Positions 269 through 41,127 of a DNA stretch of 64,000 bases are shown here, in pieces. The notes beneath the pieces were generated by a model. The model worked only from the letters and a program-made list of their open reading frames with translations. It searched no databases and was not told where the DNA came from. Within the stretch, counting starts at the first letter, position 1. Each line of letters begins with the position of its first letter. The stretch is from contig JBCNUU010000006.1 in the NCBI GenBank assembly GCA_039630545.1, positions 1 through 64,000 on the forward strand. Direction: 5' to 3'. This stretch comes from Endomicrobiia bacterium (GTDB lineage: Bacteria; Elusimicrobiota; Endomicrobiia; DTEH01). The position numbers and the translations under genes were made by a program.

Positions 269-1384
269 CTATAGATGATCGTCTATTTTATCAATAACAA
301 TAATATTATTTTCGTAATGACAATATGCTCTGTGTCCTAAGTCTGACCAAATGTAAAACTCGTGTGTTGAAGGTGGAATGGGATTACCCTTAATCCTATG
401 AAAATTTAAAGCATTAGGATTCTCATTAAACTTAATATACCGGTATAAATCGTCAATGCGCTCGTTTACTACTACTTTTCTATCTGGAGATAAATTTCTA
501 ACCTGGTTTCTAAAGTTATCAGAAAATCTTATTTGTCTAATCGGTGGATCATAAAGATCTTCTCTATAAATTTCCTTTTTATGATTATTCCATAAAATCT
601 CACCTGATATTGAAATGGTAGCATTTCCTTGCTGGTCAATTTCAAAAAAACTTTCAGGTAAGTTTTGGATTTCGTTTATATTAACTATTTCCTCTCCTAT
701 TATCATCCGCCTGAAAATATTTATGTTATTTTTTATCACATCTTTGCCACTCAGTGAAACGGGAAGTTTTGGAATTCTAAGTAAATTATTGCTTGTTTCA
801 AAAATATAGACAACCTCATCTGCGTAAAACATACCAAGTGTTTGCATTACTCCCTGAACACTTTTAAATCCACCGGTAAGGTTAAAAACTACTTTGTAAT
901 TGTTTGCTCTATATCCTGCAACGGTTTCTAAACAAAATTTAATTAATTCACTTACGCCTCTACGAAAAGAAGTGATGTCTTGCGTATTTAAAAAAGGTAT
1001 TTTTTGAGTAATAACAGTTTGAAATCCGATTTCTCTTAGTAATTCCTCTACTGTTTCTGCTGCTTTACTGCCAAGGTAGGTGTCAGTGTGAATAATTATA
1101 TTGATATCATTGTTTAAATAATCATCATAAAAGTTTCTGTTGTAATAAGATATGATACCATTTAATTCTGCAGATATTTTACTTATATCGTCATATCTTC
1201 TACTTTGTGCTAGATTTAACACTTGATTTTTTCTTTCTTCCATGTGTCTTTTAATTCTTTCCATATTTTGACTATCTATCTCATTTTCTTGCGCATTAGT
1301 ATAGGTATTTATAAGGTTTCTTATTTCTTGAGATGTGTTGTTTGTAAAAATACTTGTTCCAGAAGTCGAAACTATTAGTTTCAT
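269..1384 (-). CDS. cami1: CARF-domain type III effector with C-terminal RelE-like nuclease (Cami1-like, APE2256-type CARF)
   Basis: N-terminal STSGTS and NLTGGFK CARF motifs. The last ~90 aa (IRFSDNFRNQVRNL...HRAYCHY...DKIDDHL) have a RelE-like pattern with a terminal His. Located between csm5 and the array. Confidence 0.75.
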   Translation of the reverse strand: MKLIVSTSGTSIFTNNTSQEIRNLINTYTNAQENEIDSQNMERIKRHMEERKNQVLNLAQSRRYDDISKISAELNGIISYYNRNFYDDYLNNDINIIIHTDTYLGSKAAETVEELLREIGFQTVITQKIPFLNTQDITSFRRGVSELIKFCLETVAGYRANNYKVVFNLTGGFKSVQGVMQTLGMFYADEVVYIFETSNNLLRIPKLPVSLSGKDVIKNNINIFRRMIIGEEIVNINEIQNLPESFFEIDQQGNATISISGEILWNNHKKEIYREDLYDPPIRQIRFSDNFRNQVRNLSPDRKVVVNERIDDLYRYIKFNENPNALNFHRIKGNPIPPSTHEFYIWSDLGHRAYCHYENNIIVIDKIDDHL

Positions 1385-1400
1385 AAAATTATAAAGTTTT

Positions 1401-2531
1401 TTAGTTATTTAAATCTTTTAATCTACACTCTAACCAACCTAAAACATAGTAATTCTGGTTGTCTACAACTATACTGCGAGAAGTAGCAGTTAGTTTTTTA
1501 CCTTGATTTTTTCTACCAAATTTTTTTATAAATTCTTTATACCTGAAATCTTTGTCTTTTTCTAACAACATCGCTATTGTCTTTTGATAAAACCCCCCAC
1601 CTTGACCTAAAGAAAGAAAAAAACAACTATCATCAAGCTTTTTATTTTTAAGGTGTTCGTAAAATTCTATTATACCTTTTAACTTATCTTTTTCTGGGTG
1701 ATTATTAAAATATTCTAACTCTAAATCAATCAAATCTTTTGAAAATTCTAAACAACATTTAATTACGCCTTCTTTGGATAACAATTGTTTCCAAGAACTA
1801 TCTAATAACTTATCACTAAGTTTATCATTTATCAAAATTTCAGAAGTGATTGTTGTATCCTTTTTTAATGTTTCACAGTAAATTTTAAAACCTAATAAAG
1901 CTGATCTTGATTGTTTTTGAGGTTTACTTGCTAACCTTTGAATAACTTCAATCTTCAAAGAATTTGTACTAAGTAAAGAAGAGTCAGATACTAATAAAAC
2001 TCTTAATTTATCGTTATTTGTGCCAAAATCATTATTTTGAAATATAAGTTTGTCTATTATTGTTCTTGCTTTACTCCACAGTTCTTTTTTCAATGTATTC
2101 ATTAGATTCTGGTTATGTTTTAACAGATAATATGCTATCGCTGTCCTTATTGCTCCTTTTATAGAACTCCCAGGGATGTACGGAGTATTTTTAGTTTTAA
2201 TAAATGGTTTTACTATCAACTGATTGAGTTCATCATTTATTTTTGTAGTGTACAAACTTGCTACATTATTGCTAACATCTACACAATAGTCAAAGCTGTG
2301 TTTGTCGGGATTAAAACTTTCTACTAAAAATTCACGAAGTTGTATAATGTTGTTTTCTACTAGAGATGGAAATTTGTTCTGTTCATTTTGGGAGAGTTGT
2401 TGTAGAAAATTTTCCAATTCTATCTTATAAAACTTACCTTGTTTTATTATGTATTCATATGGGTAAATTTCTGTACCATCACCAATATGAACAGGAGATA
2501 AAATTTTACATTCTAATTTATATGTTTTCAT
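1401..2531 (-). CDS. csm5: Type III-A RAMP Csm5
   Basis: LSPVHIGDG, PYIPGSSIKGAIRTA, C-terminal LGQGGG and LGW motifs; position in operon. Confidence 0.92.
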   Translation of the reverse strand: MKTYKLECKILSPVHIGDGTEIYPYEYIIKQGKFYKIELENFLQQLSQNEQNKFPSLVENNIIQLREFLVESFNPDKHSFDYCVDVSNNVASLYTTKINDELNQLIVKPFIKTKNTPYIPGSSIKGAIRTAIAYYLLKHNQNLMNTLKKELWSKARTIIDKLIFQNNDFGTNNDKLRVLLVSDSSLLSTNSLKIEVIQRLASKPQKQSRSALLGFKIYCETLKKDTTITSEILINDKLSDKLLDSSWKQLLSKEGVIKCCLEFSKDLIDLELEYFNNHPEKDKLKGIIEFYEHLKNKKLDDSCFFLSLGQGGGFYQKTIAMLLEKDKDFRYKEFIKKFGRKNQGKKLTATSRSIVVDNQNYYVLGWLECRLKDLNN

Positions 2532-3477
2532 CTAATTTTACTCCTATTGGGAAAGCATAGGCATAGTGTTTAATGTTACTGTTGTCGCATACTTTTTCAA
2601 CAAGGCCACCATAATATTCTTTTACAGGATTGTCAATGAATACAGAACCAGAAGTGAACATCAAAAGTGGTTTTTTGAACGGATTTCTACTACGAGCATA
2701 ATCACCACCTAATTTGCCATATTTTGTAAAAATCTGATAATAACCTTTTTGTGGATCGGTTTTTTTAGGAATAAAACAAGAAAGTGACATAAAAGCATTA
2801 GGGTTTTTGGATAATGGGAGTTTTGTTTCTTCTATAGATATAAATTCCATAGCACCTTTCCCACTTGAAGCGCTTCTTCCAAAACCGCTAAGACATATAT
2901 ATTCAAAAATTGTTTTTAACTTTTCAGGCCTAAATTCAGTTTTTAAAAATATATTAATGTTAGTCGTATAAAATGTTTCTTCACTCGGATGTAAGCCACC
3001 TTCTAAAAGAACTGTGTTCGTCTTTCTGTTTATGGTATTGCGAAAAACAAGTGTAGAGAAAATTTTTGGTTGGGTTTGTTCTTTGTTAAGCAATAATTTT
3101 AACAAAGTAAATTCAGAAAGATTTTCTTTTAAATTTTCAAAATCTGAAATATGGAGATATTTTATTTTTCTTAACTTTTTTATTTTAAGAATACAATCCA
3201 TAAGGGATTTTCTGCTTTTACCAAATAAATCTTCTGCAAGAATAACCACTTTATCATAAGTAATGGGTTTAAGAATAGGTTTCGAAATAAAACCTTCTGG
3301 ATAGCCATCTGAAAGAATTATAGGAGGTTCTTCTTTGTAGGTTTCAAGAAATTCAACAAGTGATGATTCACCATAGAGATATCTTATCGCCCAACAAATA
3401 CAACCAAAAAATGTATCTGCTTGTAAAGGCGTTATTACTGAAGAGTTTATCTTAAATAAAATTTTATATGTTTTCAT
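2518..3477 (-). CDS. csm4: Type III-A RAMP Csm4
   Basis: ADTFFG, LSDGYP, RNTINR, GFGRSASSGKG and GSVF motifs. Confidence 0.92.
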   Translation of the reverse strand: MKTYKILFKINSSVITPLQADTFFGCICWAIRYLYGESSLVEFLETYKEEPPIILSDGYPEGFISKPILKPITYDKVVILAEDLFGKSRKSLMDCILKIKKLRKIKYLHISDFENLKENLSEFTLLKLLLNKEQTQPKIFSTLVFRNTINRKTNTVLLEGGLHPSEETFYTTNINIFLKTEFRPEKLKTIFEYICLSGFGRSASSGKGAMEFISIEETKLPLSKNPNAFMSLSCFIPKKTDPQKGYYQIFTKYGKLGGDYARSRNPFKKPLLMFTSGSVFIDNPVKEYYGGLVEKVCDNSNIKHYAYAFPIGVKLDENI

Positions 3478-3496
3478 TTTTTCGTTTGTAGTGTTC

Positions 3497-4183
3497 TTAT
3501 TCTAAATTTATATCTTTTATTTCATATTCAATTTTTATCTTTCCATATCCTCTACTCCCAGAACCGCCAAGATAGTCCTGCTGTAGCAGTTCTAAACCTA
3601 ATTTTACATTTTCAAATAGTTCCTCATCCCTTTTACCATTATCGTTATTTTCATCAAATACACGGTAAACCATCTCAAACTCAAACTGAGTTCCTGCAGG
3701 AACTCTTTCCATCTGACGGGGGTTGGCTTCAGCAGTTATTCTATTTATAGTATTTTCATACTTTTCTTCTGCATAGGGAAGACCTTTTTCTTCTTTTAAC
3801 TTTTTTAACATTTCTCTTGAAGCATCAGTAAGTTTTGCATCCCTTACAATTAACCTTGTTGGTCCTGTGTCTGTTTCCTGTCCTGCAGAAGTACCAAAGA
3901 TGCAACATATTGGACAATTTTTATCTTTACATGGATTTTTTCTATTGCTTCCGTGAACTTCACCGTTAGGTTCAACTTTTTCTAACTTCCATTCAAGAAG
4001 TGTTCTCATTTTACCTTTAATTGATGAACCTGGAATATATGGAAAATCATCAACAGGACTTCTAATAATAGGATTGTCAACACCTCCTATTTCTATCTTT
4101 TCGCTTGAACCACCAATATGAAGGCCAGTAAGGCAAGTTATAATTCCTGAAATTTTTTTGTATTTTAATAGTTTCATTTTCAC
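3497..4183 (-). CDS. csm3: Type III-A backbone RNase Csm3
   Basis: TGLHIGG, IGGVDNP (catalytic Asp present), PYIPGSSIKGKMR, YLGGSGSRGYG. Confidence 0.96.
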   Translation of the reverse strand: MKMKLLKYKKISGIITCLTGLHIGGSSEKIEIGGVDNPIIRSPVDDFPYIPGSSIKGKMRTLLEWKLEKVEPNGEVHGSNRKNPCKDKNCPICCIFGTSAGQETDTGPTRLIVRDAKLTDASREMLKKLKEEKGLPYAEEKYENTINRITAEANPRQMERVPAGTQFEFEMVYRVFDENNDNGKRDEELFENVKLGLELLQQDYLGGSGSRGYGKIKIEYEIKDINLE

Positions 4184-4593
4184 TTACCTCCTTCACCATA
4201 AAAATAACCTACAACTGCTTCAAATACTAAACAAAAAGCTATAAAATCTTTCTCTGTTTTTATATTATCAACCATCTCTTCTATGAACTCACGAAATTCA
4301 ATTGGAACTTTACGTTCCCTGCCTTTTGTTGGACAAGCGTATGCTGCCTTTGATTTTAACATTTTAATTAACGGTTTTGCTTGTTCAAAATTGTTTTTTA
4401 CCTTTAGTTCTAATGCTTTAACATCATGGTAAAACCTTCTTAGCTGCGCCGAAGTTAAAGGAGGATTCTTAGGACCTTGTTGTGGCCTTTGTGGACTAAT
4501 AAACTTTTTTGCCCATTCTAATGCTTTTTTTGTTAAAAGGTCTTCTTTAATGATGTTATTTTCAACATTTTCATAAAAATAATTCTCTGTCAT
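4180..4593 (-). CDS. csm2: Type III-A small subunit Csm2
   Basis: TSAQLRRFY and FEAVVGY motifs; 137 aa between cas10 and csm3. Confidence 0.93.
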   Translation of the reverse strand: MTENYFYENVENNIIKEDLLTKKALEWAKKFISPQRPQQGPKNPPLTSAQLRRFYHDVKALELKVKNNFEQAKPLIKMLKSKAAYACPTKGRERKVPIEFREFIEEMVDNIKTEKDFIAFCLVFEAVVGYFYGEGGK

Positions 4594-4606
4594 AACATAA
4601 ACCTCC

Positions 4607-7156
4607 TTATTTTCTTCCTCTGTTCTTATATAGTACCCAAAACAGAGGAATTTTAAGATTTTTCATTAGTATTTCTTCTTGTGGGTCTAAACTTATCTTG
4701 TAAAGTTTTTGAAGCTCATTTATAAGTTCTTCATTTACAATTTTTGTCTGTCCATTTTCTTTTTTTATCTGAATAATATTTCTTTTGACATCGTATGCCA
4801 TTAGAGAGTGGTAAAGAAGATTTCTAATGTCATATTTATCTTTTTTCGTATTGAGATACATATTATGATATTTTAATAATCTGTATAAAAATGCTGAATT
4901 TATTTTTGAACCTTCTCTGTTAAATTCTTTATCTATCTTTTCAGCAAAGCTAAATAATGCGTCTAAATTTATCCATTCAACAGTGGTGTCAAACAAAGTT
5001 ATCCTGTTTCTGCCATTATCCTTAGACATTTTTAGTGATTCTTCAGCTAGATGTATGGCTCTACTAATTGGGAAATTGGGTTTTATTAAAGTAATACCAG
5101 CAGAAAGAGAAATATCTTTGTTTTCACAAGTAAATTTTTTGAAATCAAAATATAGCTTTTTAGAAAATTCTATAATTGTTCTCCAATCACTTATTAGTAA
5201 TAAATCATCACCACCCGAATACACGGTATAGATATTTTGAAATTCGTTATGGCAGAGTTCTTCTACATAGCCGGCAAAGAAAAGATTCAACATTCTGCTT
5301 AAAGTAACATAACGAGATATAGAAATACTTCCACCTAATCCCAAACTAAAAATAAGTCCTAACCTGTCAACATCTGCCTTAAGAATTCCTATCAATTGAG
5401 AGCCAATTTTTTTACTGTCTTTCTGCTCAACGGATTTGGCAGCTATACAATAAAAAGTTTTTACTTTACCTGTCTCTTTGTTTACTTCACAATTTTTTTC
5501 ACTACATAAAGAACAAAGCTTTTCTTCAACATTTTCATCTGTAAAAACTGGAACATAATTTGCTATAAATCTCAACCCATAATTGGATAGCAAAACTTTG
5601 GGATCATATAACTCTTCAATAAGATAAAAATTTCTGTAATTAACTTTATTTTTATCTTCAAAAAAATAAATATAGTGTTTACCATCAAAAAAGGATATTT
5701 TTTCTTCAAAGTCAAGTCTACTGGTAGAATAACATAGAATTTTTTTCTTTATTAACCACTCACCAATTTTTTCTTGTTCATTACATTGACTGCAAATTTT
5801 ATTACCATCATTATTTTCAGCAGGCATTTTACCACAACTTTCACATATTCCTTCTGGATAATTAATATCTTGTACAAACTTTTCTTCACGCCATTCGTTG
5901 TTTTCATAAAGAAATTCAAAAAGTTGTTGTTTTTTCTTTTCTTCAATATTTTCGTTAAGTTTTTCTAAAAAAGAAGAAAATTTTTCTATTTTGAAATCAT
6001 CCCTTGAAAGTTCTAAACTCCAATCCAGATTTAATAGTAATTCTCCTTTAAATGTTTTATAGTACCATTCATTAATTTCACTATATATTTTGTTAAGTCT
6101 TCTCTTTATTTCATCTAAATTTGGCAAAAGTGTAATAAATCTTCCACCTGCATTAATTATATTACAAACTAATGGGAGATCTAATTGGTTAAGAATGAAA
6201 TGACTTGTAATATTAGTTAAAATACTTAAATAGAAAGATCTCGCTCTTAACCTTTTACTAATACCTTTCACACCACTATGTGAAAAATTAAAAATATACC
6301 TTTGAATACCACTTAAATCTCCACCTAACAATATAAACTTCTTATCGTTATTCCTAATACTATCCTCTGTAAGAGAATTCTTATTTTTATGAAACTCATA
6401 TAAACAAACAGCGATTGCAGCTGTTGTTTTTAAGTGGTCAAAAAGAGATATGTCAGGAAAATCAATAGTTGAGCTTGGAATACACCAGGTATATTTTTCT
6501 AAAAGAAATATTAGCGAGTTAAGAAATATATTAAAGTCATCTTTAGGAAGGTTTCGAAATTCACTAATAAAGTTTTGCCATAGTTGATTATATTTATTAA
6601 CTAAACTTTTTCCTTCAGGAGGATCTAATTTGCTTATATCCTGAGGAAATACATTATCTTTAATAGGCAATAACGGTCTTATATCATATCTATAAGCATC
6701 AGCAACAGAACCATTACTTTCTAAATTAATTTTTTCAAAGATAGAATGTAATCTTACTTTTTTGTATCTTTCAGATCCTCTAATTTCATCTATTATGTCA
6801 TTTTCTAATCTATCCATACCAGCAGAAATTTTATCAGCAATTTCTATAATGGTTTTTAGAGGAGTGTCTGGTTTGTGATGATATGATGCTAAATTTGCAC
6901 AATTATCTGTTATAATTGATAAAGAAATATTTTTGGGGAAATAATCTTTATTTTTCTCAAAAAATTCGTTTGTCCATATGACATGATGATGAGAATACCC
7001 ATCTTTGCTGTTTTTGTCAGTTGGACAAATAGAAGTTTTCATTCCTATTGATAAAGAAGAGAGTTCACTTTCATTTTCAAATGCACGTTGATAAAACTTA
7101 CCAATATCGTGTAATAATGCAGCTAAAATTATATTGTCTCGTTCATATGAGTTCAT
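4607..7156 (-). CDS. cas10: Cas10/Csm1 with intact HD nuclease and Palm (GGDD) cyclase motifs
   Basis: LLHDIGK, IADKISAG, SLFDHLKTTAA, GDLSGIQ, LRARS, KADVDRLG, VYSGGDD. Confidence 0.97.
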   Translation of the reverse strand: MNSYERDNIILAALLHDIGKFYQRAFENESELSSLSIGMKTSICPTDKNSKDGYSHHHVIWTNEFFEKNKDYFPKNISLSIITDNCANLASYHHKPDTPLKTIIEIADKISAGMDRLENDIIDEIRGSERYKKVRLHSIFEKINLESNGSVADAYRYDIRPLLPIKDNVFPQDISKLDPPEGKSLVNKYNQLWQNFISEFRNLPKDDFNIFLNSLIFLLEKYTWCIPSSTIDFPDISLFDHLKTTAAIAVCLYEFHKNKNSLTEDSIRNNDKKFILLGGDLSGIQRYIFNFSHSGVKGISKRLRARSFYLSILTNITSHFILNQLDLPLVCNIINAGGRFITLLPNLDEIKRRLNKIYSEINEWYYKTFKGELLLNLDWSLELSRDDFKIEKFSSFLEKLNENIEEKKKQQLFEFLYENNEWREEKFVQDINYPEGICESCGKMPAENNDGNKICSQCNEQEKIGEWLIKKKILCYSTSRLDFEEKISFFDGKHYIYFFEDKNKVNYRNFYLIEELYDPKVLLSNYGLRFIANYVPVFTDENVEEKLCSLCSEKNCEVNKETGKVKTFYCIAAKSVEQKDSKKIGSQLIGILKADVDRLGLIFSLGLGGSISISRYVTLSRMLNLFFAGYVEELCHNEFQNIYTVYSGGDDLLLISDWRTIIEFSKKLYFDFKKFTCENKDISLSAGITLIKPNFPISRAIHLAEESLKMSKDNGRNRITLFDTTVEWINLDALFSFAEKIDKEFNREGSKINSAFLYRLLKYHNMYLNTKKDKYDIRNLLYHSLMAYDVKRNIIQIKKENGQTKIVNEELINELQKLYKISLDPQEEILMKNLKIPLFWVLYKNRGRK

Positions 7157-8112
7157 AACACTATCTCATACCTCCCTAAGCCGAAGGTGCAGTTTTTGCC
7201 TATGTGGGTATACTGACCAAGGATTAAAAATGGTAGAAAATCTTCAAGAGATTCTTCAGTTTGATAGGTTATTTTTCCTATAAAGCCACTTAGTTCCATT
7301 ACTATTTTTCTTCTCTTAGAGTAACGAAACCATTTGCTCCAAGTGAGGTTATTATTTTTTATTTTAACATTTTTTGCTTTTTTTGTCAACATTTTGTAGT
7401 CAAATTTTATTTCTTGATCACAATAAAAATACAGGATCGCTAAAAGTCTGCGATATACTGCGCGAAAAAGTGATATAAACTGTGGTTCTTTTAAAATTAA
7501 ACCTTGTTCTTTAATTCTTGTCGGAGAAAGAAAATTTAGTGTTATTTCGTTTCTGTATGTCTTTGTGTCAAATTTGTCTAAAAGTTGTTTAAGAGTTACG
7601 TGACTGTTTAAGTTTCTTAATATCCGGTCCTGACTATAAACTACTTCGTCAAAAAAGTTTTTGACTTCAGTAAGTTGAAATTTTGTTCTGTTGTTTTTTG
7701 TTCCTATGCCCTTTTTTGAAAGGTTTTCAAAGGTTAAGATAAAGTAGGGTATGTACTGTGTTGCTTTACCAAAAAGTATAAGATTAAATTCAAACTCTTC
7801 CTGTGGTTGATAAAGATTTTTTGTATGGTCTACTTCTAACACAAAAGGTCTTGGAAGGTCTTTTGTTGCTCCAAAGTTCGGAAGAATTTCTTTAGGGTAG
7901 CTCTCAAATAAGTATACATATACACAGTTTGGTTTTACTATGCATTCGTCGCATTCTTTTGTTTTTTTGTTGATGCAGCAGGTTTCTTTTAAAACACTTC
8001 CAATTGCTCCTCGCAAAATGTTGCCAGGGTATGTAAGTAGCTTAAGCTGGTCTTCAAATTTAATGGTAAATCTATATAATGAGAAATAAAAATTTATATC
8101 TTCATTTATCAT
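7153..8112 (-). CDS. cas6: Cas6 pre-crRNA endoribonuclease
   Basis: LRGAIG, Cys-rich insert, PRPFVL, FLSPTRI, C-terminal G-loop HIGKNCTFGLG. Confidence 0.92.
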   Translation of the reverse strand: MINEDINFYFSLYRFTIKFEDQLKLLTYPGNILRGAIGSVLKETCCINKKTKECDECIVKPNCVYVYLFESYPKEILPNFGATKDLPRPFVLEVDHTKNLYQPQEEFEFNLILFGKATQYIPYFILTFENLSKKGIGTKNNRTKFQLTEVKNFFDEVVYSQDRILRNLNSHVTLKQLLDKFDTKTYRNEITLNFLSPTRIKEQGLILKEPQFISLFRAVYRRLLAILYFYCDQEIKFDYKMLTKKAKNVKIKNNNLTWSKWFRYSKRRKIVMELSGFIGKITYQTEESLEDFLPFLILGQYTHIGKNCTFGLGRYEIVL

Positions 8113-8168: not shown

Positions 8169-9365
8169 TTAAAATTTAAGTTTTTTTATGTTTTCCAAAA
8201 GTAAATCAACTGAGTCGGTCTTTTCCCAGGTGAAGTCTTCATCTGTTCTGCCGAAGTGGCCATATGAGGCTGTCTTTTTATATATTGGTCTTCTTAGTTT
8301 TAGTTTGTCTATTATTTCTTTAACTTTAAAAGAAAATGTGTATTTTATTAGTTTAAGAAGCTTTTCGTCATCTATTATCCCAGTGTTAAATGTATCAACT
8401 GCAATTGATACCGGATCTTCTTTTGCTATACAATAGGCAATCTGTATAAGACATTTTTTTGCAATACCTGCTTTAACTATGTTTTTTGCTACATAACGTG
8501 CCATGTACGCAGCTGAACGGTCTACTTTTGTGGGATCTTTTCCTGAAAATGCTCCTCCTCCATGAGGGACATAACCACCATAGGTGTCCACCATTATTTT
8601 TCTTCCTGTAAGGCCTGTGTCTGCTTGAGGACCTCCTATGGTAAACTTTCCAGAGTTGTTGATGTAAATTTGTGTTTTTGATGTAAAGAAATCTGAGATT
8701 ACAGGTATAACTATTTTTCTTATTATTTCGTCTTTTGCTTCTTCAGACATGGTATCGGTTTTTTTGTCAACTACTTCTTCGGTATGCTGTGCAGCAATAA
8801 TTACAGAGGAAACATAAAGAGGTTTGCCATTTTCATATTTTACTGTAACCTGGGCTTTCCCATCAGGGCCAAGATATGGAAGAATCTTGTTTTTTCTTGC
8901 TTCAGAAAGTGTTTTTGTAAGTTTATGAGCTAAAGTTATTGGCAGAGGCATAAGTTCTTCTGTTTCTGATGTTGCATATCCAAACATTATACCCTGGTCA
9001 CCAGCACCAATTTTGTCTTGTCCAGATACTGCTTTGTTTATCTCTTCGGATTGTCTGTTAAAGAGTGGTATTATTGTTATATCTTTGTAGTCCCAGCTAT
9101 AGAGTTCTTTAGAGGTGTATCCTATTTGTTTTATTACATTTCTTACTGTGTCTTCTATTTCATAAAAATAAATACTAGCTTCTGACAGGATCTCTCCAGC
9201 TAAAATAATTTTGTCTCCTGTTGCTATTGTTTCACAAGCAACATGTGCATGAGGGTCTAGAGTCAAATATCTGTCTAAAATAGCGTCTGAAATTTGGTCA
9301 CAAATTTTGTCGGGGTGTCCTTCAGTAACTGACTCTGCTGTGAATTCTGTAAGTTTTTGGTTCAT
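8169..9365 (-). CDS. metK: S-adenosylmethionine synthetase
   Basis: ESVTEGHPDKICDQISD, GAGDQG, GGGAFSGKDPTKVDRS, YGHFGR. Confidence 0.98.
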   Translation of the reverse strand: MNQKLTEFTAESVTEGHPDKICDQISDAILDRYLTLDPHAHVACETIATGDKIILAGEILSEASIYFYEIEDTVRNVIKQIGYTSKELYSWDYKDITIIPLFNRQSEEINKAVSGQDKIGAGDQGIMFGYATSETEELMPLPITLAHKLTKTLSEARKNKILPYLGPDGKAQVTVKYENGKPLYVSSVIIAAQHTEEVVDKKTDTMSEEAKDEIIRKIVIPVISDFFTSKTQIYINNSGKFTIGGPQADTGLTGRKIMVDTYGGYVPHGGGAFSGKDPTKVDRSAAYMARYVAKNIVKAGIAKKCLIQIAYCIAKEDPVSIAVDTFNTGIIDDEKLLKLIKYTFSFKVKEIIDKLKLRRPIYKKTASYGHFGRTDEDFTWEKTDSVDLLLENIKKLKF

Positions 9366-9384: not shown

Positions 9385-10830
9385 TTAAATTTTCGGTAAA
9401 ATATGTACCTTTCTGCAGAACTTTTTTAAATCTGTCAAAGATGCTTCTTTTTTTGTATGTGAAGTTATCACAGCTTCCAAAACTATCTTTTTTTCTTTGA
9501 TTTTAGATATCAACGAATTATCTGGTGTTAAAAATATTCCATCTGTAAAAATTAAGGCTTTTTTGATTTTTTTTGTTTCTAAAATATGTTTTAGCACACA
9601 TTCTATTTCTGTACCAAATGTGCTGTATGATATTCCTTTAAAGAATTCAGAATTCTTGACTTCTTTAACTTTTGTGCTCCATACGTACACTCTAATTAAA
9701 CCTCTACATACAAAAGGTTTAAAAGAAGAATAAAGAACCTCGTAGTAGTCTTCCATACTGCCACTTACATCAACATAGATATTACATATAGCATCTGGTC
9801 GATCAAAAGCAGGTCTATTATAGTGTGTGTCATAAAAAACCACATCTAAATTACTTTCTTGTTTTACTATGTAGTTGGGGATGTTAAGGTCAGGTATTAT
9901 ACTTTTTGTATTTAATTCTGTTTTTTTGAGGGTATAGATTGGCATATAAGTTTTTTCTTCCTGCAGGAGTCTTAATATCAGTTTTCTTGTAAAGTTTACA
10001 ACTTCTGTTTCCGGTGGTTTAAATTTAATTTTGAAAGTATCTAAATTCTCAAAAGCATTTCCACAGCTATCTCCGTGGAACTTTTTTCTTTCAGAGTTTC
10101 CTGAAGAATCCGAAGAAATGTTGTCTAAAAGTTTTTCTAATTTTGAAATTATGTCTTTGTTTGTTGTTGAACCTAAATTTTTATTACTTATGGGATGTGT
10201 TCCAATCAAAGGTAAATCAACAAGCAGGGTTTTATATGAGTCTAACTTAAAAATTTCTTCTATTATTTGTAGTATTTCTCTAAAGGAAACTCCTTCTTTA
10301 GATGCGTATAGTTTTTTAATTAACCATTTATATTTTAAGGGAAAATCTTCTTTTAGTTTTATGTTGTTTTCTTCATATCCTTGAGGGGGTCTGAGTAGAC
10401 TTTCTATTATATTGCTGACGCTATAGAGTCTTTTTAATATTGAGTATTCAGATGGATCCTTAAATTTTTTCACAAGTAGAGAATTAATCAAAGCATCAAA
10501 TGCGATATTCATTGCTTGTTCAAAGTCGTATTCATCTTTTAGTTGTGGTTGTTCTTTTTTTGCTATCTCAAGATGGCCTAAAAATATATGGTAAAGTTCA
10601 TGGTATAAAACAAATTTTAAGTCTTTTTGTGTCTCGCAATATTTTTCTACAAATTCTTTGTTTATAAGCAAATATATTTTTTCATCTTCCAGACTGACAG
10701 ATAATGAATGAATTTCTTGAGTAATTTTTACCTCAACAATTGTTAAAAACTCATCTATTAAGTTGGGATCGTCTGTTATTGAATTAATTATTTGTACTTT
10801 TAGTTTTTCTTTTTCTTCGGGAAGTTTCAT
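9385..10830 (-). CDS. Metallopeptidase-like (HExxH) plus vWA domain protein (DUF2201-like), MoxR partner
   Basis: HELYH followed by NIAFDALIN; Ser-rich linker; C-terminal MIDAS motif DVSGSM...GT...FTDG. Confidence 0.85.
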   Translation of the reverse strand: MKLPEEKEKLKVQIINSITDDPNLIDEFLTIVEVKITQEIHSLSVSLEDEKIYLLINKEFVEKYCETQKDLKFVLYHELYHIFLGHLEIAKKEQPQLKDEYDFEQAMNIAFDALINSLLVKKFKDPSEYSILKRLYSVSNIIESLLRPPQGYEENNIKLKEDFPLKYKWLIKKLYASKEGVSFREILQIIEEIFKLDSYKTLLVDLPLIGTHPISNKNLGSTTNKDIISKLEKLLDNISSDSSGNSERKKFHGDSCGNAFENLDTFKIKFKPPETEVVNFTRKLILRLLQEEKTYMPIYTLKKTELNTKSIIPDLNIPNYIVKQESNLDVVFYDTHYNRPAFDRPDAICNIYVDVSGSMEDYYEVLYSSFKPFVCRGLIRVYVWSTKVKEVKNSEFFKGISYSTFGTEIECVLKHILETKKIKKALIFTDGIFLTPDNSLISKIKEKKIVLEAVITSHTKKEASLTDLKKFCRKVHILPKI

Positions 10831-10867: not shown

Positions 10868-11371
10868 CTATATAATTGAATCTTCAAAACTATAAAATTC
10901 TCTTCTAATAAGTTCAGGTATAAAGGATATTTCCCTGTGAGGCAAAAATGCATATCTGGTAGATCTTAGTATCACATTAAGAGAAACTAAAATTGGTGCT
11001 TTCAGAATTTGTTTTGATTCAATTTTATTTTTTAAAAACATGGTTAAATCTATAAGTGGAATAATTCTATTGCAGTTTTTGTTAATGTCATCTAATGCCG
11101 GTTTTAATTCTTTTTCTAATATCTCAATGTTTGCTTGGTCGTTTCTGTATAGTTTGATCAGTTCACACCATACTTGTTTTGAAATATTAGTATGCTTTTC
11201 TAAATAATAAATATCGTAAAAATTAAGTTCATCTAAAGAAAATTTTAATATCTTATTTTTGGAAAATTTAGTAAAACTGTTTGCAGTTAGAACTCTTACA
11301 GCTGTGGTATCTAAATTTTTTAGTATTATATTTCCTTTCATTTTAATTCCCCTCCTTGAATATATTTTCAA
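10868..11371 (-). CDS. Hypothetical protein between the AAA+ and vWA genes (start may be the second Met at 11341)
   Basis: 167-aa ORF coupled to the AAA+ stop codon; AGGAGGG SD precedes MKGNII; no recognised motif. Confidence 0.65.
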   Translation of the reverse strand: MKIYSRRGIKMKGNIILKNLDTTAVRVLTANSFTKFSKNKILKFSLDELNFYDIYYLEKHTNISKQVWCELIKLYRNDQANIEILEKELKPALDDINKNCNRIIPLIDLTMFLKNKIESKQILKAPILVSLNVILRSTRYAFLPHREISFIPELIRREFYSFEDSII

Positions 11372-12905
11372 ATCTTTCGTTAAAGTATAAAAATGTTTTA
11401 ATGTATGAATTTATGAATTTTTCAAAATTTATTTGTTCTTTAAGATTGATTTCACAAAAATAATTAAAAATACTACAGTATATTGCATCTGAAATAGATT
11501 TATTTTTAACCTGCATGGTCTTGATTTCTTCATCTATCATTTCAAGTATATCCTGAGTGTAACTGAAACTAAGATTCTCTTCATTTGAAGATAAACTTTT
11601 AAAAGTTGGGATCATTTTATAGAAATAAGTATCTGTATCGTGATTATTTTTTATCCTTAATGTTAAATCAGAGGTATATTTTAAGAATTCATAACATAAA
11701 ATATCTGCCAGTTCTGCACTTAAAGGCATTCTTGATAGGTATCTAAAACCAGTAACTACAAAACAAACTTTTCTATATTCGTTGTTTTTGTTTATCAAAG
11801 AGATTAGTAATTCTTCAAATTTTTCTTTTTCTATATTGTTTTTAAGTAGTAGCTCTATAGCTAAAAAAATTTTCTCATAGGGATCTTTTTCATAATAAAC
11901 TAATATTTTAGGATCGTATTTATCTATACATCTTTTTATTGTGTTTGAAATAATTATGTTTAGTAATGAATCGTCAATTTTTAAGTATGCTCGGTGAGGT
12001 AGAGAACAAATAGTTGCGTTAAATGTTATCCAGTAAAGTTCTATCTCTTTGCCTGTAGCTAAAACTGCTGAAATATACCATAAAATATTGTCTTTTATAA
12101 CTTTTATTCTTCGGGTTGAGAGGTAAATATTTATTTTCTTTAATTCGTCACTCAAAGAAACCAGATACTTGTCAAATCTATAAAAGTATTCTTTTACAAT
12201 ATCGTTAAATAATAATTTAGTTTTATGAATTGTATTTTTTAACCAGTTTGTTAACTTGTTGTCTATTTTGTAAATATTTAGACTACTTATTATCTTATAT
12301 TTTATTTTCTCTTCCATTTCATGAAAGTTTGGAAATTTTAGTATATAGTTAAATCTATCTGCTAAGGCAACATCTAAAGGATAGGTACCCTCGGTAACTA
12401 AAGTTTCAGGTGTCTCATCGTCATATTCAAATTTAGGTGGATTCATTGCTGCCCACCTATAGATAAGTTTGTCTAAGTTTATTCCATATATTCGTTTTTC
12501 ATATATAATTGAAAAAAACTTATTTTGAGTATCTGGTTTGCACCTGGAAATTTCATCAATAAATATCGCTTCTTTATCCCAGCATGAACAAGGTAGTTGC
12601 TGATAACTGATTTTACCATTGGGTAGTTTAACAGGATAGCCAATAAGTTCATCTAAATTTAACATTGAAGCATTGTAATGAGCATAATTTAAAGATAAGG
12701 TTTCAAAAAGTTTAAGTGTTAGTTGCGTTTTTGCAGTTCCTGGAGTACCTATCAGTAACACAGGGCATTCCTGTGCCAGAGATGCTATAATAATGTCATC
12801 AAAGTCCTTAAGTCCATAAAGATTTAATTCTTCCGTGATAGATATGGGATTTTTTTTAATAAAGAAAGTGCTTGAGGAGTTATTTAGAATCTGTTTTTTT
12901 GTCAT
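11343..12905 (-). CDS. MoxR-family AAA+ ATPase with C-terminal helical extension
   Basis: Walker A GTPGTAKT, Walker B IFIDEISR, AAMNP, PLDVALADRF; adjacent vWA gene. Confidence 0.88.
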   Translation of the reverse strand: MTKKQILNNSSSTFFIKKNPISITEELNLYGLKDFDDIIIASLAQECPVLLIGTPGTAKTQLTLKLFETLSLNYAHYNASMLNLDELIGYPVKLPNGKISYQQLPCSCWDKEAIFIDEISRCKPDTQNKFFSIIYEKRIYGINLDKLIYRWAAMNPPKFEYDDETPETLVTEGTYPLDVALADRFNYILKFPNFHEMEEKIKYKIISSLNIYKIDNKLTNWLKNTIHKTKLLFNDIVKEYFYRFDKYLVSLSDELKKINIYLSTRRIKVIKDNILWYISAVLATGKEIELYWITFNATICSLPHRAYLKIDDSLLNIIISNTIKRCIDKYDPKILVYYEKDPYEKIFLAIELLLKNNIEKEKFEELLISLINKNNEYRKVCFVVTGFRYLSRMPLSAELADILCYEFLKYTSDLTLRIKNNHDTDTYFYKMIPTFKSLSSNEENLSFSYTQDILEMIDEEIKTMQVKNKSISDAIYCSIFNYFCEINLKEQINFEKFINSYIKTFLYFNERFENIFKEGN

Positions 12906-13069
12906 AGGTTTATGAATTCTCCTTTCTAACTTAGATGGAGATCGGCAGTACCACCTTACCTACTTTTTATAAGGTAGGCAGGTTGGTAAGGAAGATATGC
13001 GCCTGCCGGTCATCGCGCTGAAGCAACAATTCATGTTGCTTCACATCTTCCTTTTCGGCATAAACCTAC
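12903..13069 (-). ncRNA. Candidate SAM-I-clan riboswitch variant (proximal, translational)
   Basis: P1 UAGGUUUAUG/CAUAAACCUA; branched P2; P3 CCAACCUG..UAAGGUGG; 6-bp pseudoknot CGGCAG/CUGCCG; P4 UCUCC/GGAGA contains the SD; metK in the downstream operon. Confidence 0.65.
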
Positions 13070-13171
13070 TGAGTTTTAAAGATTTTTCAAAGATGTAAAA
13101 TAATTATGAATATAAAGAAAACAATCTAAGAATTTAAGTTTATGTATTTATCAACTTTATTTACAACTTTA

Positions 13172-13356
13172 AAGATACATGGGGTTCCTTTTTGAGGAAC
13201 CGCTTTTCCACCTTATTCTACGAATAAAATTCGTAGAACAGGTTGGCACGGAGTCGGTAGCAGGCTTTTCCTGCCGGGGCTGGTTAACACCCCCTTCCTC
13301 CGACTCTTCATGTATCCTACAATTGGCCTTCTGTGAGTATGGCCAAAAATAGGATA
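13172..13356 (-). ncRNA. Candidate SAM-I-clan riboswitch variant (distal) with a 5' competing hairpin
   Basis: P1 AGGAUACAUG/CAUGUAUCUU followed by AAGAG; P2 GAGUCGG/CCGACUC enclosing two hairpins; P3 CCAACCUG..UAAGGUGG; P4 GGUUCC/GGAACC; no clear pseudoknot. Confidence 0.55.
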
Positions 13357-13369: not shown

Positions 13370-13398
13370 AAAGTATAAAAATTTTTAAAAAAAGTCAA
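13370..13398 (-). promoter_or_regulatory. sigma70-like promoter for the riboswitch/AAA+ operon
   Basis: TTGACT (13393-13398) with TATACT at 15-nt spacing or TACTTT at 17-nt spacing, just upstream of the structured RNA. Confidence 0.5.
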
Positions 13399-13449: not shown

Positions 13450-14655
13450 TTATATATGCTTCAATAAGTGACCTAAACGGTACTTTTTAGAAGAAAGATA
13501 CTTTTTCATGTGTTTTGTTTTGGGCGGGATTTCTATTGGTATGCGTTCTATGATTTTTATTCCGTAACCTTCAAGTCCAACTATTTTTTTAGGATTGTTA
13601 GTAAGAAGGCGAATTTTTTTTACACCTAAATCTGCTAAAATCTGAGCACCAATCCCATAGTCTCTAAGATCAGGTTTGAATCCTAGTTTTAGATTAGCTT
13701 CAACTGTGTCCAGGCCTTTGTCCTGAAGCTGGTATGCTTTAAGTTTGTTTATTAAACCAATACCTCTACCTTCTTGGTGTAAGTAAAGTAGAATTCCACC
13801 TTCCTTCGAAATCATCTCTAAGGACTTATCCAACTGAAGTCCACAATCGCATCTTAAAGAATGTAACGCATCTCCTGTAAGGCAAGAAGAATGCACTCTA
13901 ACCAGAATGCCGTCTTCTATTTTTCCTTTTTGCAGAACAATGTGATTTTCTTTAGTCAAAACATCTTGATAAACGAAAAGTTTAAATGTACCATAGTCTG
14001 TTGGTAAAATTGTACTTACAATTTTCTTTATAAATTTCTCTGTAAGTCTTCTGTATTTTATTAGGTCAGCAATTGTTATAATTTTTAGTTTGTGTCTTTT
14101 GGCAAATTTTATTAACTCTGGAAGTCGTGCCATTGTGCCATCTTCGTTCATTATTTCACATATTACTCCGGCTGGGTAAAAACCAGCAAGTTTTGCTAAG
14201 TCAACAGAGGCCTCTGTGTGACCTGCTCTAACTAGTACTCCTCCCTCCTTGTAAACCAAAGGAAAAACATGTCCAGGACGAACAAAATCTTCCGGTTTTG
14301 CAAGAGGGTCTATGAGTTTTTTTATGGTAGTGGCACGATCATATGCAGAAATACCTGTTGTTATTCCTTCTTTGGCATCTACAGATACAGTAAAGGCAGC
14401 TTCATGTGGAATCTCTGGCTGACATACCATCAGTGGAATTTTAAGTTTAGTCAGTCTTTCTTCCGTTAAAGCTACACAAATAAGACCTCTTGCATATTTT
14501 GCCATGAAATTTATCCAGTAAGGAGTTGCTTTTTCTGCTGGTAGTACAATATCGCCTTCGTTTTCTCTTTCAGGGTCATCTACTACTATTACTGGTTTGC
14601 CTTTTTTTAGTTCTTTTATTGCAGCTGGAATTGTAGCAAAAATTTTATTTTTCAT
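13450..14655 (-). CDS. ribBA: Bifunctional DHBP synthase / GTP cyclohydrolase II
   Basis: [27 protein letters not shown]...RCDCG, QEGRGIG. Confidence 0.97.
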
Positions 14656-15273
14656 TCATTTAATAAAACCATGTTCTTTCAAAAAATCCAGTGTGATTTC
14701 TTTTTTTGGTTTTGTTATTTCTTTTATGTATCTTGCTAAAATATCTACTTCTATGTTGAATTTATCTTTTGGTTTTTTGTATTTAAGTGTTGTATTATTT
14801 AGTGTAAACGGTACTATCACTACAGAAAATCTGTCTTTTAATTTTTTTGCAACAGTTAAACTTATACCGTCCAGTGCAACAGAACCTTTTTCTACTATAA
14901 AATCATATAAATTTTTTGGCAACTCAAATATGTATTCTTCGTGCTTGATCTCTAATAGCTCTACTATACCGTCTACATGACCAGTTACAAAGTGGCCAGA
15001 AACTCTACTGCCAACTTTAAGCGAGCGCTCAAGGTTAATTTTATCTTGTGGTTTTAAAAATTTTAAGTTTGTTCGGCTTAGCGTTTCTAAGGATAGTGTT
15101 GTTTTAAAAATTGTTTTGTTATCTGAAGTTTTTAGATCTTCTACTGTTAAGCACACACCATTCACAGAAACACTATCTGCAATCTTTATGTCAGACAACA
15201 CCGTAGAGATAACAAGAGCAGTTGGTGTTTTTTCTTTTAGCTCTGCTATATCTTCTATTATACCCGTAAACAT
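14656..15273 (-). CDS. ribE: Riboflavin synthase (alpha chain)
   Basis: MFTGIIE N-terminus, NGVCLTV, GHFVTGHVD, DGISLTV. Confidence 0.97.
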   Translation of the reverse strand: MFTGIIEDIAELKEKTPTALVISTVLSDIKIADSVSVNGVCLTVEDLKTSDNKTIFKTTLSLETLSRTNLKFLKPQDKINLERSLKVGSRVSGHFVTGHVDGIVELLEIKHEEYIFELPKNLYDFIVEKGSVALDGISLTVAKKLKDRFSVVIVPFTLNNTTLKYKKPKDKFNIEVDILARYIKEITKPKKEITLDFLKEHGFIK

Positions 15274-15290
15274 TTTTTTAAGGTTAAATT

Positions 15291-16394
15291 TTATTTTATA
15301 AATTTTGCTTTTATTACAAAATCTTTAGCTATTTCTTCAATACTTAAAAACTCTACTTTAAACGCTTTTGACGGCAAAACAACTCCTTCACCTTCCACCC
15401 AGGTTTTCGCTGTTCTGCCTCCAAAAATTTTTGGTGCCATAAATATAATAAAATCATCTACTAACTTTTCTTTTAACAGTCTCCAAATCGTCTCACCACC
15501 ACCTTCAACTAACACTGAAGTGATGTTGTGGTTTTTAGCTAAGGTTTTAAGAATTTGTTTAAATGGTATTTTTTTAGTCCGATAAAAATAAAAGATTATA
15601 TTTTCTTTATTATAAAAGTTTTTGATTTTTTTGTTTTCAAAATTAGGAGTAAATATTATGGTTTTAATCTTGTTGTCAAAAATGTGAAATTTTTTGTTTA
15701 AGTTTAATAATTTTGATATGTTTCCTACCACTATTCTTGTTGGATTTTTTCCAAAATTATGAGATGATAATGAAGGGTTGTCTATAAGCACTGTGTTTAT
15801 TCCGACCATTATACCATCATATGTGGCTCTTAGTTTATATACATATTCCCTTGAGTTTTCTGTAGTTATCCATTTTGATTTGTTTGCTACTGTTGCAATT
15901 TTCCCATCAAAGGTAATTGCTGATTTAATTGTTACATACGGTAAAGATTCTGTTATCCATTTTAGATAAAATCTGTTTAGATATTTTGCTTCTTCGTTTA
16001 GTACACCAACTTTACATTCTATTCCTTGTGAAATGAGTTGTTTTATTCCCTTGCCATTAACCTCAGGATTAGGGTCTATTATTGAACAGACTACTTTTTT
16101 TATTTTGTATTTAATTATTTTTTCAGTACATGGTGGGGTCTTCCCCCAATGACAGCAAGGTTCTAAGTTTACATATAAAGTGGATCCAGCTATTAAAGAT
16201 GTATTCCCTTTTTTTATTGCGTCTTCTATAGCTTCTACTTCAGCATGCGGCTTACCATAAGCTTTGTGATAACCCTCTCCTATTATTTTGTTTTTATGTA
16301 CCAAAACAGCACCAACTAAAGGATTAGGAGAAGTCTGTCCTAAAGCTTTTTTTGCAAGTTCAAAACAGTATCTTATATATTTTTCATCATTCAT
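15291..16394 (-). CDS. ribD: Riboflavin biosynthesis deaminase/reductase
   Basis: PNPLVGA, HAE, LEPCCH..KTPPC, VEGGG. Confidence 0.97.
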   Translation of the reverse strand: MNDEKYIRYCFELAKKALGQTSPNPLVGAVLVHKNKIIGEGYHKAYGKPHAEVEAIEDAIKKGNTSLIAGSTLYVNLEPCCHWGKTPPCTEKIIKYKIKKVVCSIIDPNPEVNGKGIKQLISQGIECKVGVLNEEAKYLNRFYLKWITESLPYVTIKSAITFDGKIATVANKSKWITTENSREYVYKLRATYDGIMVGINTVLIDNPSLSSHNFGKNPTRIVVGNISKLLNLNKKFHIFDNKIKTIIFTPNFENKKIKNFYNKENIIFYFYRTKKIPFKQILKTLAKNHNITSVLVEGGGETIWRLLKEKLVDDFIIFMAPKIFGGRTAKTWVEGEGVVLPSKAFKVEFLSIEEIAKDFVIKAKFIK

Positions 16395-40652: not shown

Positions 40653-40728
40653 CGGGCTCGACGGGATTTGAACCCGCGATCTCTGGCTTGACAGGCCAGC
40701 GTGTTGAACCAGGCTACACCACGAGCCC
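40653..40728 (-). tRNA. tRNA-Asp(GTC)
   Basis: Cloverleaf; anticodon arm CTGGC-CTGTCAA-GCCAG; no encoded CCA. Confidence 0.96.
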
Positions 40729-40741
40729 ACCACCCAAAATA

Positions 40742-40813
40742 TGGGCGGTAGAGGATTTGAACCTCTGACCTTCCGGGTGTAAACCGGGCGCTCTCCCGCT
40801 GAGCTAACCGCCC
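40742..40813 (-). tRNA. tRNA-Val(TAC)
   Basis: Cloverleaf; anticodon loop TTTACAC; T-loop TTCAAAT. Confidence 0.94.
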
Positions 40814-40847
40814 TTGTTATTTAATCAATCAAATAAAAACTTTCCTG

Positions 40848-40922
40848 GGTGGTTGACGGGACTTGAACCCGCAACAACCTGGGCCACAGCCAGGTGCTCT
40901 ATCCAGTTGAGCTACAACCACC
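40848..40922 (-). tRNA. tRNA-His(GTG)
   Basis: Anticodon arm CCTGG-CTGTGGC-CCAGG; encoded G-1 opposite C73. Confidence 0.95.
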
Positions 40923-40950
40923 ACAAAACAAACCTTTTTCAAATTCAAAA

Positions 40951-41024
<74 letters not shown>

Positions 41025-41031
41025 ATTAAAA

Positions 41032-41104: not shown

Positions 41105-41127
41105 TTTTTTTATCAAAATTTTTACTC

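Follow-up and report, generated by a model that had tools for sequence, protein, structure and literature searches.

Results

A tandem leader RNA precedes a MoxR-VWA-MetK gene cassette

The stretch of DNA analyzed here (hereafter the window) comprises positions 1 to 64,000 of contig JBCNUU010000006.1 of an Endomicrobiia bacterium (phylum Elusimicrobiota; GenBank assembly GCA_039630545.1) and carries on its minus strand a four-gene cassette that opens with a gene for a MoxR-like AAA+ ATPase and closes with metK, an accessory gene for S-adenosylmethionine (SAM) synthetase. Between ribBA (13450-14655) and the 520-amino-acid (aa) open reading frame (ORF) of the ATPase (11343-12905) lies, on the same strand, a 544-nucleotide (nt) intergenic leader that holds two tandem aptamers of the SAM-I riboswitch clan, an upstream copy A and a downstream copy B. 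All positions below are window coordinates, and the features of leader and cassette are collected in Table 1.

Table 1. Features of the leader and of the cassette behind it, listed in the direction of transcription.
Feature	Position	Strand	Basis or remark
Possible promoter, TTGACT (13398-13393) and TATACT (13377-13372)	13372-13398	minus	15-nt spacer; weak
Copy A, upstream SAM-I-clan aptamer	13171-13320	minus	fold, RF01725 match, model R2, strain conservation
Stub ORF of three codons, AUG UAU CUU UAA	13169-13180	minus	read from sequence
A+T-rich spacer between copies A and B	13069-13170	minus	G+C 0.176
Copy B, SAM-I-clan aptamer	12905-13068	minus	fold, RF00162 alignment, model R2
Candidate L2-J3/4 pseudoknot of copy B	12943-13008	minus	CGGCAG (13008-13003) with CUGCCG (12948-12943)
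MoxR-like AAA+ ATPase, 520 aa, cassette gene 1	11343-12905	minus	Pfam AAA_5, 42 bits
Small protein, 167-aa ORF (protein of 157-167 aa), cassette gene 2	10868-11371	minus	ORF
HExxH (DUF2201_N-like) and VWA protein, 481 aa, cassette gene 3	9385-10830	minus	homology, motifs
Accessory metK, 398 aa, last cassette gene	8169-9365	minus	TIGR01034

Copy B was described in the first-pass annotation as a divergent SAM-I-like riboswitch sequestering the Shine-Dalgarno (SD) sequence and start codon of the ATPase gene, and the helices on which that description was built were all returned by an unconstrained minimum free energy (MFE) fold. The outer helix, P1, is formed by 10 base pairs (bp) between 13068-13059 (UAGGUUUAUG) and 12914-12905 (CAUAAACCUA), and the last nucleotide of its 3' strand, A12905, is the A of the ATG of the ATPase ORF; the joining strand J1/2 that follows P1, noted beforehand as the linker CCGAA, lies at 13058-13054. 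P2 opens with a 10-bp helix (13053-13044 with 12997-12988) and encloses a perfect 10-bp inner hairpin (13043-13034 with 13028-13019) and a GCGC hairpin (13018-13015 with 13002-12999), while P3 spans 12986-12951 and P4 pairs UCUCC (12941-12937) with GGAGA (12922-12918), placing the SD in its 3' strand. The energy of the fold, -65.7 kcal/mol (z = -7.49), was matched by none of 200 dinucleotide shuffles, and copy B forms a G+C island, its content of 0.433 exceeding that of the window (0.292) and that of the neighboring spacer (0.176). The proposed complementarity between a P2 hairpin loop (CGGCAG) and the J3/4 segment after P3 (CUGCCG) is likewise present and extends over 6 bp; in the secondary-structure ensemble at 37 °C both segments stay mostly free (unpaired probabilities 0.82 and 0.93), and 191 of 20,000 shuffles of the two segments reach 6 bp.

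Copy A is built on the same plan. Its P1 is AGGAUACAUG/CAUGUAUCUU, its J1/2 is AAGAG(U), its P2 branches into two hairpins, its P3 (CCAACCUG...UAAGGUGG) is the same as that of copy B, and its P4 is GGUUCCU/AGGAACC. All of these helices are intact in a fold of -76.3 kcal/mol (z = -6.83) to which none of 200 shuffles was equal, and the G+C content of copy A is 0.487. The stub ORF starts within the 3' strand of P1, and upstream of its AUG the 3' strand of P4 contributes an AGGAA, a layout that parallels those of copy B and of a homolog from the same-genus genome G001 (see below), where the AUG opens the ATPase gene.

Both aptamers are conserved in a related strain, contigs of which, from two other studies among public hot-spring metagenome DNA runs, were compared at 80% likeness. 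Copy A, with 5 differences in 157 nt (13174-13330; 96.8% identity), is the best-conserved stretch of the locus, followed by copy B (12936-13068; about 92%) and by the ATPase coding DNA (12300-12844; 68 differences in 545 nt, 87.5%). The 105 nt between the two copies are replaced in this strain by 81 unalignable letters, and the sequence upstream of 13330 is unrelated. By this comparison, both aptamers are more constrained than the gene that follows them, and the spacer is unconstrained.

The RNAs are remote homologs of SAM-I and covary with a third copy

A scan of the window at Rfam gathering thresholds reported six tRNAs only and missed copies A and B, as did the scan of the genome, in line with the earlier suspicion that standard models might overlook this RNA. 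Below those thresholds, the top SAM-clan match of copy A was SAM-I/IV (RF01725; 23.9 bits, cut-off 41.1; E = 0.22 for 701 nt searched). Copy B was absent from this 701-nt E-value scan and, when searched alone, scored 27.9 bits with SAM-I (RF00162; gathering score 44.4; E = 1.3e-4), from model position 1 to 108 and window position 13066 to 12907. Examination of the DNA upstream of ATPase relatives located a third copy in G001 (L025, 1357-1483), where it precedes the gene for a 42%-identical ATPase. This copy has an unbranched P2 and matches the full RF00162 model at 32.9 bits; a near-identical RNA in the metagenomic locus L116 scores 32.6 bits.

A covariance model built from the G001 and L116 copies (R2) recovered both copies, B with 49.8 bits (E = 1e-12) and A with 48.7 bits (E = 2e-12), and returned nothing at E ≤ 1 in 37 control loci. 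Across 122 genomes of the class, R2 found the RNA in G000 and G001 only, together with one partial match in G017 (21.2 bits) that was dropped as it had neither P3 nor P4. In the resulting four-row alignment 98.6% of the cells are paired and 19 of the 39 modeled pairs change on both sides, with contributions from P1 (4/7), the base of P2 (5/7), P3 (8/15) and P4 (2/7); the distal P2 helix, of 3 bp, has letters only in G001 and L116 and is invariant. None of 500 shuffles matched the observed alignment on four of five measures (5 of 500 did so on the remaining one, further pair types), and sliding the pairing partners reduced the pairing to 34-50%. The sub-threshold Rfam matches, the R2 matches and the kept pocket positions described below all support membership in the SAM-I clan, although the Rfam SAM models themselves return copy B (SAM-I) and copy A (SAM-I/IV) below their gathering scores.

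Other searches added no further copies. A model of copy A alone (R1) retrieved only itself from the window and 61 genomes, and BLASTN of the leader against 61 relatives gave A+T-rich noise only. In 401 Elusimicrobiota genomes the pattern CCAACCY-N(8-38)-WAAGGTGG was no more frequent than its reversed control, and 30 of the pattern loci, of which five were scanned with Rfam and all with R2, contained no match. The quality of the MAFFT alignments of the copies was too low for use.

The architecture is that of SAM-I without its kink-turn

The MFE folds of copy A, copy B and the G001 copy share a four-way junction of P1, P2, P3 and P4 with P4 inside P1. In the Rfam alignments all three retain an A-U and a U-A pair where P1 meets the junction, the J1/2 G, and, in P3, the internal loop CAACC/GGUG together with a bulged A. 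These are the SAM-contacting positions of the SAM-I crystal structures, in which carbonyls of the P1-end pairs recognize the sulfonium. Copy A and G001 have the consensus J1/2, AAGAG. The first-pass statement that the SAM-contacting positions (the P1 pairs, the J1/2 G and the P3 loop) are kept holds; copy B differs at two other aligned positions of J1/2. Two flipped pairs had also been proposed. The P1 closing pair is indeed G-C rather than C-G and the outer P3 pair is C-G, and AUG/CAU and CCAACC/GGUGG are found in all three Endomicrobiia copies; CCAACC/GGUGG, however, is the SAM-I/IV consensus and as such no new flip.

The kink-turn (k-turn) of the SAM-I P2, a 3-nt bulge with tandem G.A pairs, is absent from all three copies. 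The P2 internal loop of G001 reads UAU/GUUUUG, without G.A pairs, and in copies A and B the k-turn columns give way to 44-53 nt forming two hairpins, as had been anticipated from the sequence of copy B. The SAM-I k-turn is reported to kink P2 so that its loop docks, and a single point mutation in it to abolish SAM binding; the same source describes, for engineered SAM-I, a non-k-turn kink (pk-turn) that can replace it with retention of binding (PMC5061560). Because such a replacement is tolerated, we consider it plausible, by analogy, that the branched P2 could do the job of the kink-turn. A loop-to-J3/4 pairing can also be drawn for G001 (CCGG(C)/(G)CCGG, 4-5 bp) and, as read from the sequence, for the metagenome locus L117 (5-6 bp).

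With SAM-I (RF00162) these RNAs share the four-helix junction, the pocket positions, a candidate loop-to-J3/4 pairing and the link to a SAM synthetase gene. They differ from it in their sub-threshold scores (27.9-32.9 bits), in the lack of k-turn G.A pairs, in the branched P2 of copies A and B, in the inverted P1 closing and outer P3 pairs, and in having the SD and AUG built into P4 and P1, whereas a terminator is the usual SAM-I expression platform. The related classes SAM-I/IV (RF01725) and SAM-IV belong to the same clan and have a SAM-I-like core without kink-turn; the SAM-I/IV consensus has a cCAACC...GGUGg P3 and is the best Rfam match of both copy A and L117. These two classes are not known to have an internal P4, their P3 loop pairing instead with a 3' tail or hairpin. 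The RNAs described here have an internal, covarying P4, which the RF01725 alignment of copy A treats as an insertion, and score 23.9-25.5 bits against the SAM-I/IV cut-off of 41.1. The internal P4 and the candidate loop-to-J3/4 pairing make the architecture that of SAM-I and not of SAM-I/IV. In two marks of SAM-I membership, the k-turn and the gathering score, the RNAs depart from the family, and they are best filed as a new structural variant of SAM-I with predicted ligand binding.

A precedent is the spermidine-sensing SAM-I variant of Salvail et al. 2023 (PMC10853860), likewise a rare look-alike noticed by its gene association, with one representative before metK. As described there, that variant has an altered J1/2 and P3 loop, is associated with polyamine genes in Firmicutes and acts by transcription termination. 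Here, in contrast to that description (PMC10853860), the P3 loop is unchanged, J1/2 is changed in copy B only, and the RNA stands before a MetK cassette; no polyamine genes are present at the cassette locus.

The tandem layout is not new, because double SAM-I arrangements are common: 164 examples have been listed and a steeper, "pseudo-cooperative" response has been proposed for them (PMC9481103). The leader described here resembles these in uniting two complete SAM-type aptamers, both of them conserved, and differs from the arrangements as presented in that study (PMC9481103) in that its upstream unit has no recognizable terminator or gene. The expression platform of copy B would be the integrated SD and AUG; copy A ends in the three-codon stub, with no terminator.

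The cassette encodes a MoxR-VWA pair and a SAM synthetase

Cassette genes follow each other in the order ATPase, small protein, HExxH-VWA protein, and MetK or MetK-like protein. The gene behind the RNA had been called a MoxR ATPase; its product is MoxR-like, with an AAA_5 match (AAA_3 and bpMoxR fall below their cut-offs) and 1,439 relatives at E ≤ 1e-10 that are named MoxR family by their sources. The small protein has no Pfam, NCBIfam or PADLOC match and retrieved nothing from the ESM Atlas; an ORF of 141-181 aa stands at the same place, a correspondence in position only, in eight other loci (L083, L084 and six metagenome loci), and the contigs of L119 and L123 end before it. The HExxH-VWA protein is 35% identical to its counterpart in L116 and 25% to that in L120. 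Orthologs match DUF2201_N, VWA_CoxE and DUF2201, and invariant in six VWA sequences are H77, E78 and H81 of the HExxH motif and D354, S356, G357 and S358 of the DxSGS metal-ion-dependent adhesion site (MIDAS), on which grounds the third genes are homologous across the cassette loci. Neither the ATPase nor the VWA protein has a relative by sequence in the PDB.

The cassette closes with a genuine metK, which scores 512.9 bits with TIGR01034 (cut-off 309.4). It shares 60% identity with the housekeeping metK found elsewhere in the genome (G000:C45:121898-123058), upstream of which no SAM-riboswitch-like RNA was found. The order of the four genes is repeated in G006, in four metagenome loci and in G001, which has its MetK-like gene split in two ORFs; the contigs of the other four metagenome loci with a clear ATPase relative end before gene 4. 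A MetK-like gene is present in six of the six other loci that are long enough (L083, L084, L116, L117, L120 and L121). In most cassettes this gene encodes a divergent MetK-like protein (158-181 bits, below the TIGR01034 equivalog cut-off) that keeps the motifs GHPDK, GPDGK and GGGxxSGK and is about 5 residues shorter between motifs. The cassette module is distributed over Endomicrobiia genomes and marine and other metagenome contigs. The expectation that homologs of the RNA would be tied to SAM or methionine genes is borne out, since a metK or MetK-like gene ends the cassette, and it is this gene that accounts for the link between an ATPase and a SAM riboswitch.

The split MetK-like gene of G001 (L084, 6352-7394) consists of ORFs of 194 and 137 aa, and in L116 (6638-7681), which has the same ORF layout and a near-identical riboswitch, the gene is a single 347-aa ORF; the split could be due to a frameshift, a stop or an assembly error.

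We also considered a role of the cassette in defense and rejected it, as none of its proteins has a PADLOC match and no relatives occur in viral contigs. A paralogous MoxR-like ATPase (39% identity) is encoded in the same genome, in G000:C3 (L128, 289-8960), followed by two proteins of no known family and an SbcD/SbcC-like pair; this second cassette has neither metK nor such an RNA and serves as a negative control. In L027 (G056) and L028 (G010) a VWA-type gene with a DVSGS motif stands before, not after, more distant ATPase relatives (31-35% identity), with a conserved terminator-like hairpin in between, an order unlike that of the MetK cassette.

Two unrelated SAM riboswitch classes precede homologous cassettes

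The DNA upstream of the cassette was scanned against Rfam in nine metagenome loci encoding an ATPase relative. Three loci carry SAM-II (RF00521) above its cut-off of 36 bits (41.7, 41.7 and 39.5) and three carry it below (32.8-33.2 bits); SAM-I precedes the cassette of L116 at 32.6 bits, and the G+C-rich L117 has a SAM-I/IV-like RNA with canonical AUC/GAU and GCAACC/GGUGC elements (25.5 bits, E = 0.042). No RNA was found in the 148 nt available upstream of the ninth, whose ATPase relative is 22% identical. In the other eight loci the RNAs all lie directly upstream of the cassette, and because several of the loci are near-duplicates, the set represents about five distinct lineages. SAM-II occupies the same position before the ATPase-small protein-VWA-MetK cassette as the RNAs described above but has an unrelated pseudoknot fold. 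The loci that carry it are of marine metagenomic origin, and in one of them, L120, a terminator-like hairpin comes after it. Since SAM-II is unrelated to SAM-I, the cassette appears to have been brought under SAM control by different aptamers, and the presence of SAM-II before homologous cassettes is independent support for such control.

Canonical SAM-I above the cut-off was found in 21 of 151 Elusimicrobiota genomes and in none of the Endomicrobiia searched. Twelve of these loci were fetched; in the 10 whose downstream ORFs were scanned, the genes are mostly of homocysteine synthesis (3) or encode pyridoxal phosphate enzymes (3), and none of the 12 precedes a MetK cassette. In another Elusimicrobiota family, above-cut-off SAM-I RNAs have an unusual context: in L135 (G098) and L136 (G111) some 190-240 nt separate them from downstream ORFs for proteins with an AAA_2 (Clp/Cdc48-type) ATPase domain. 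In L141 (493-579; G109), no ORF of 70 aa or longer occurs in the roughly 700 nt after SAM-I, and the next gene is ychF.

Neighboring features

The TTGACT/TATACT pair upstream of copy A was not called by a consensus promoter scan because that scan demands a spacer of 16-18 nt, and the region is unrelated sequence in the related strain. No terminator-like site was found on the minus strand in the spacer between the two aptamers. A ribD-ribE-ribBA operon (13450-16394, minus strand) lies directly upstream of the leader, with no flavin mononucleotide riboswitch reported anywhere in the window at Rfam gathering thresholds, and the six tRNA genes cluster at 40653-41199 on the minus strand.

Downstream of the cassette, and separated from metK by 56 nt on the same strand, is a complete type III-A CRISPR-Cas module (269-8112) encoding Cas6, Cas10/Csm1, Csm2-5 and a CARF-RelE effector. 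In G006 an ORF that reaches the contig end and so has a length of 302 aa or more stands at the position of this module, and cassettes in other lineages have no type III-A module. We examined and discarded a functional link between the two: the cassette is present without the module in G001, L116 and L120-L122, and the effector is a CARF protein. Their adjacency is probably a coincidence.

Discussion

Probable mechanism and points that weigh against it

Taken as a whole, the leader is in our view probably best explained as two k-turn-less SAM-I-clan aptamers, of which copy B would act as a SAM-dependent translational OFF switch of the cassette. In copy B and in the G001 and L116 copies, P4 carries the SD and P1 the start codon, each in its 3' strand, and copy A shows this layout in vestigial form. 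With these two elements built in, the aptamer would be its own expression platform. Binding of SAM would lock the junction and thereby block both elements, preventing ribosome loading, such that at high SAM the four-gene cassette would not be made and at low SAM it would be expressed together with its extra SAM synthetase. One of the hairpin loops of the branched P2 of copy B may pair with J3/4 in the manner of the SAM-I pseudoknot, and copy A may be a second, conserved SAM sensor in the same leader. The analysis establishes the structure, the homology to SAM-I, the covariation, the conservation and the linkage of the cassette to two unrelated classes of SAM riboswitch; we infer SAM as the ligand, the direction of switching and the translational level of control.

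Several observations weigh against this interpretation. None of the copies reaches the Rfam gathering score (copy B 27.9, G001 32.9 and L116 32.6 bits against 44.4), the P2 kink-turn is missing from A, B and G001, and the CCGAA of copy B keeps the J1/2 G and the A that follows it and differs at two aligned positions. The covariation comes from three independent sequences, L116 being almost the same as G001, and from an alignment fitted to the model. Copy A has no terminator and no gene, and its candidate pseudoknot has 4 bp only (AACC/GGUU) and overlaps P4. The gap of 12 nt between GGAGA and the AUG of copy B is long for an SD. In a nearest-neighbor model the SD and the 3' strand of P1 are moreover unpaired without ligand with probabilities of 0.03 at 37 °C, 0.09 at 65 °C and 0.21 at 75 °C, so that a simple equilibrium ON state is not evident; on this model, switching would require kinetic control, a contribution of tertiary packing, or high temperature. 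The public runs that hold the locus include no RNA data for the organism. To these points must be added the precedent of the spermidine-sensing SAM-I variant, which according to PMC10853860 is marked by J1/2 and P3-loop changes and in one case precedes metK.

Two upstream segments that might open P1 were examined and set aside. An anti-P1 for copy B, the segment 13144-13135, mimics the 3' strand of P1 and might pair with the 5' strand instead (-7.9 against -10.6 kcal/mol), and is unsupported because the spacer in which it lies is replaced in the related strain. A complement to the 5' strand of copy A P1, found upstream of it in a full-leader fold, also lies in a region that is not conserved.

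The precedent just cited gives some substance to the idea that the RNA has a SAM-I-like fold and, retuned by the changes flanking its pocket, binds something else: S-adenosylhomocysteine, decarboxylated SAM, methylthioadenosine, a polyamine or a SAM-nucleotide conjugate. The spermidine variant is reported to reject SAM (PMC10853860), the J1/2 of copy B departs from AAGAG, and every Rfam score of the RNAs is below its gathering threshold. Yet the P3 internal loop is unchanged in copy A, copy B and G001, J1/2 has the consensus sequence in copy A and G001, both P1-end pairs are kept, homologous cassettes are preceded by SAM-II above the Rfam cut-off, and the locus has no polyamine gene, all of which leads us to regard a ligand other than SAM as improbable. 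Less probable still, and in our view very unlikely, is a stable leader that does not switch, be it a constitutive damper of translation, a hot-spring thermometer or a protein-binding look-alike of SAM-I. The 10-bp P1 of copy B is unusually long, and in the model the SD remains paired without ligand up to 65 °C and opens only near 75 °C; this account would nonetheless have to accommodate the full-length alignment to the SAM-I model with its kept pocket nucleotides, SAM-II at the same place in distant cassettes and metK in the operon.

A different question is whether both aptamers work. Copy A might be a remnant without output, stranded when recombination brought in copy B with a new 5' end of the gene. 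It ends in an SD-like AGGAA, an AUG and a three-codon stub, it has no terminator, it is closer than copy B to the single G001 aptamer in J1/2 and J3/4, and one aptamer suffices in G001 and L116. Against this stand the intact helices of copy A, its conservation (5 of 157 nt differ, compared with 68 of 545 in the coding sequence), which is the highest of the locus, and the 164 double SAM-I arrangements on record (PMC9481103). We consider this account unlikely, although less so than the two above, and favor a leader in which two SAM-I-clan aptamers are retained and copy B controls the cassette.

A SAM-regulated module around a dedicated SAM synthetase

Known MoxR-VWA pairs mature or remodel one dedicated enzyme. 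The cassette resembles CbbQ-CbbO, NorQ-NorD and RavA-ViaA in having a MoxR-type AAA+ ATPase beside a MIDAS-bearing VWA protein, and differs from them in the HExxH domain of the VWA partner and in its candidate client, a MetK paralog. Chaperone-like roles for dedicated complexes have been described for MoxR ATPases (PMC3893208), and by analogy the ATPase and the VWA protein may service the MetK paralog. A broader proposal, which we put forward tentatively and would not expect to hold in full, is that of a SAM-regulated module in which the ATPase, the small protein and the HExxH-VWA protein serve a dedicated MetK, in which control by SAM-I-clan and SAM-II RNAs would have arisen at least twice, and in which the RNAs of this study would represent a k-turn-less SAM-I lineage whose branched P2 kinks and whose ribosome-binding site and start codon lie in the aptamer.

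Our literature searches found no paper linking a SAM riboswitch, or metK, to a MoxR/VWA cassette, and this association is the more novel part of the finding, ahead of the RNA variant. For annotation, the locus indicates that real SAM-I-clan switches from poorly sampled phyla can score 12-20 bits less than the Rfam cut-off demands. In terms of RNA structure, nature provides here a test of whether a branched P2 can take the place of the kink-turn. For metabolism, the locus ties a widespread, uncharacterized MoxR/VWA pair to SAM synthesis, and because the MetK-like proteins of the cassette keep the catalytic motifs, have a shortened stretch and score below the equivalog cut-off, the effect of the ATPase on MetK is a directly testable question. 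If the proposed module is real, it could be an activase, an assembly factor or a quality-control protease for SAM synthetase, as CbbQ-CbbO is for Rubisco.

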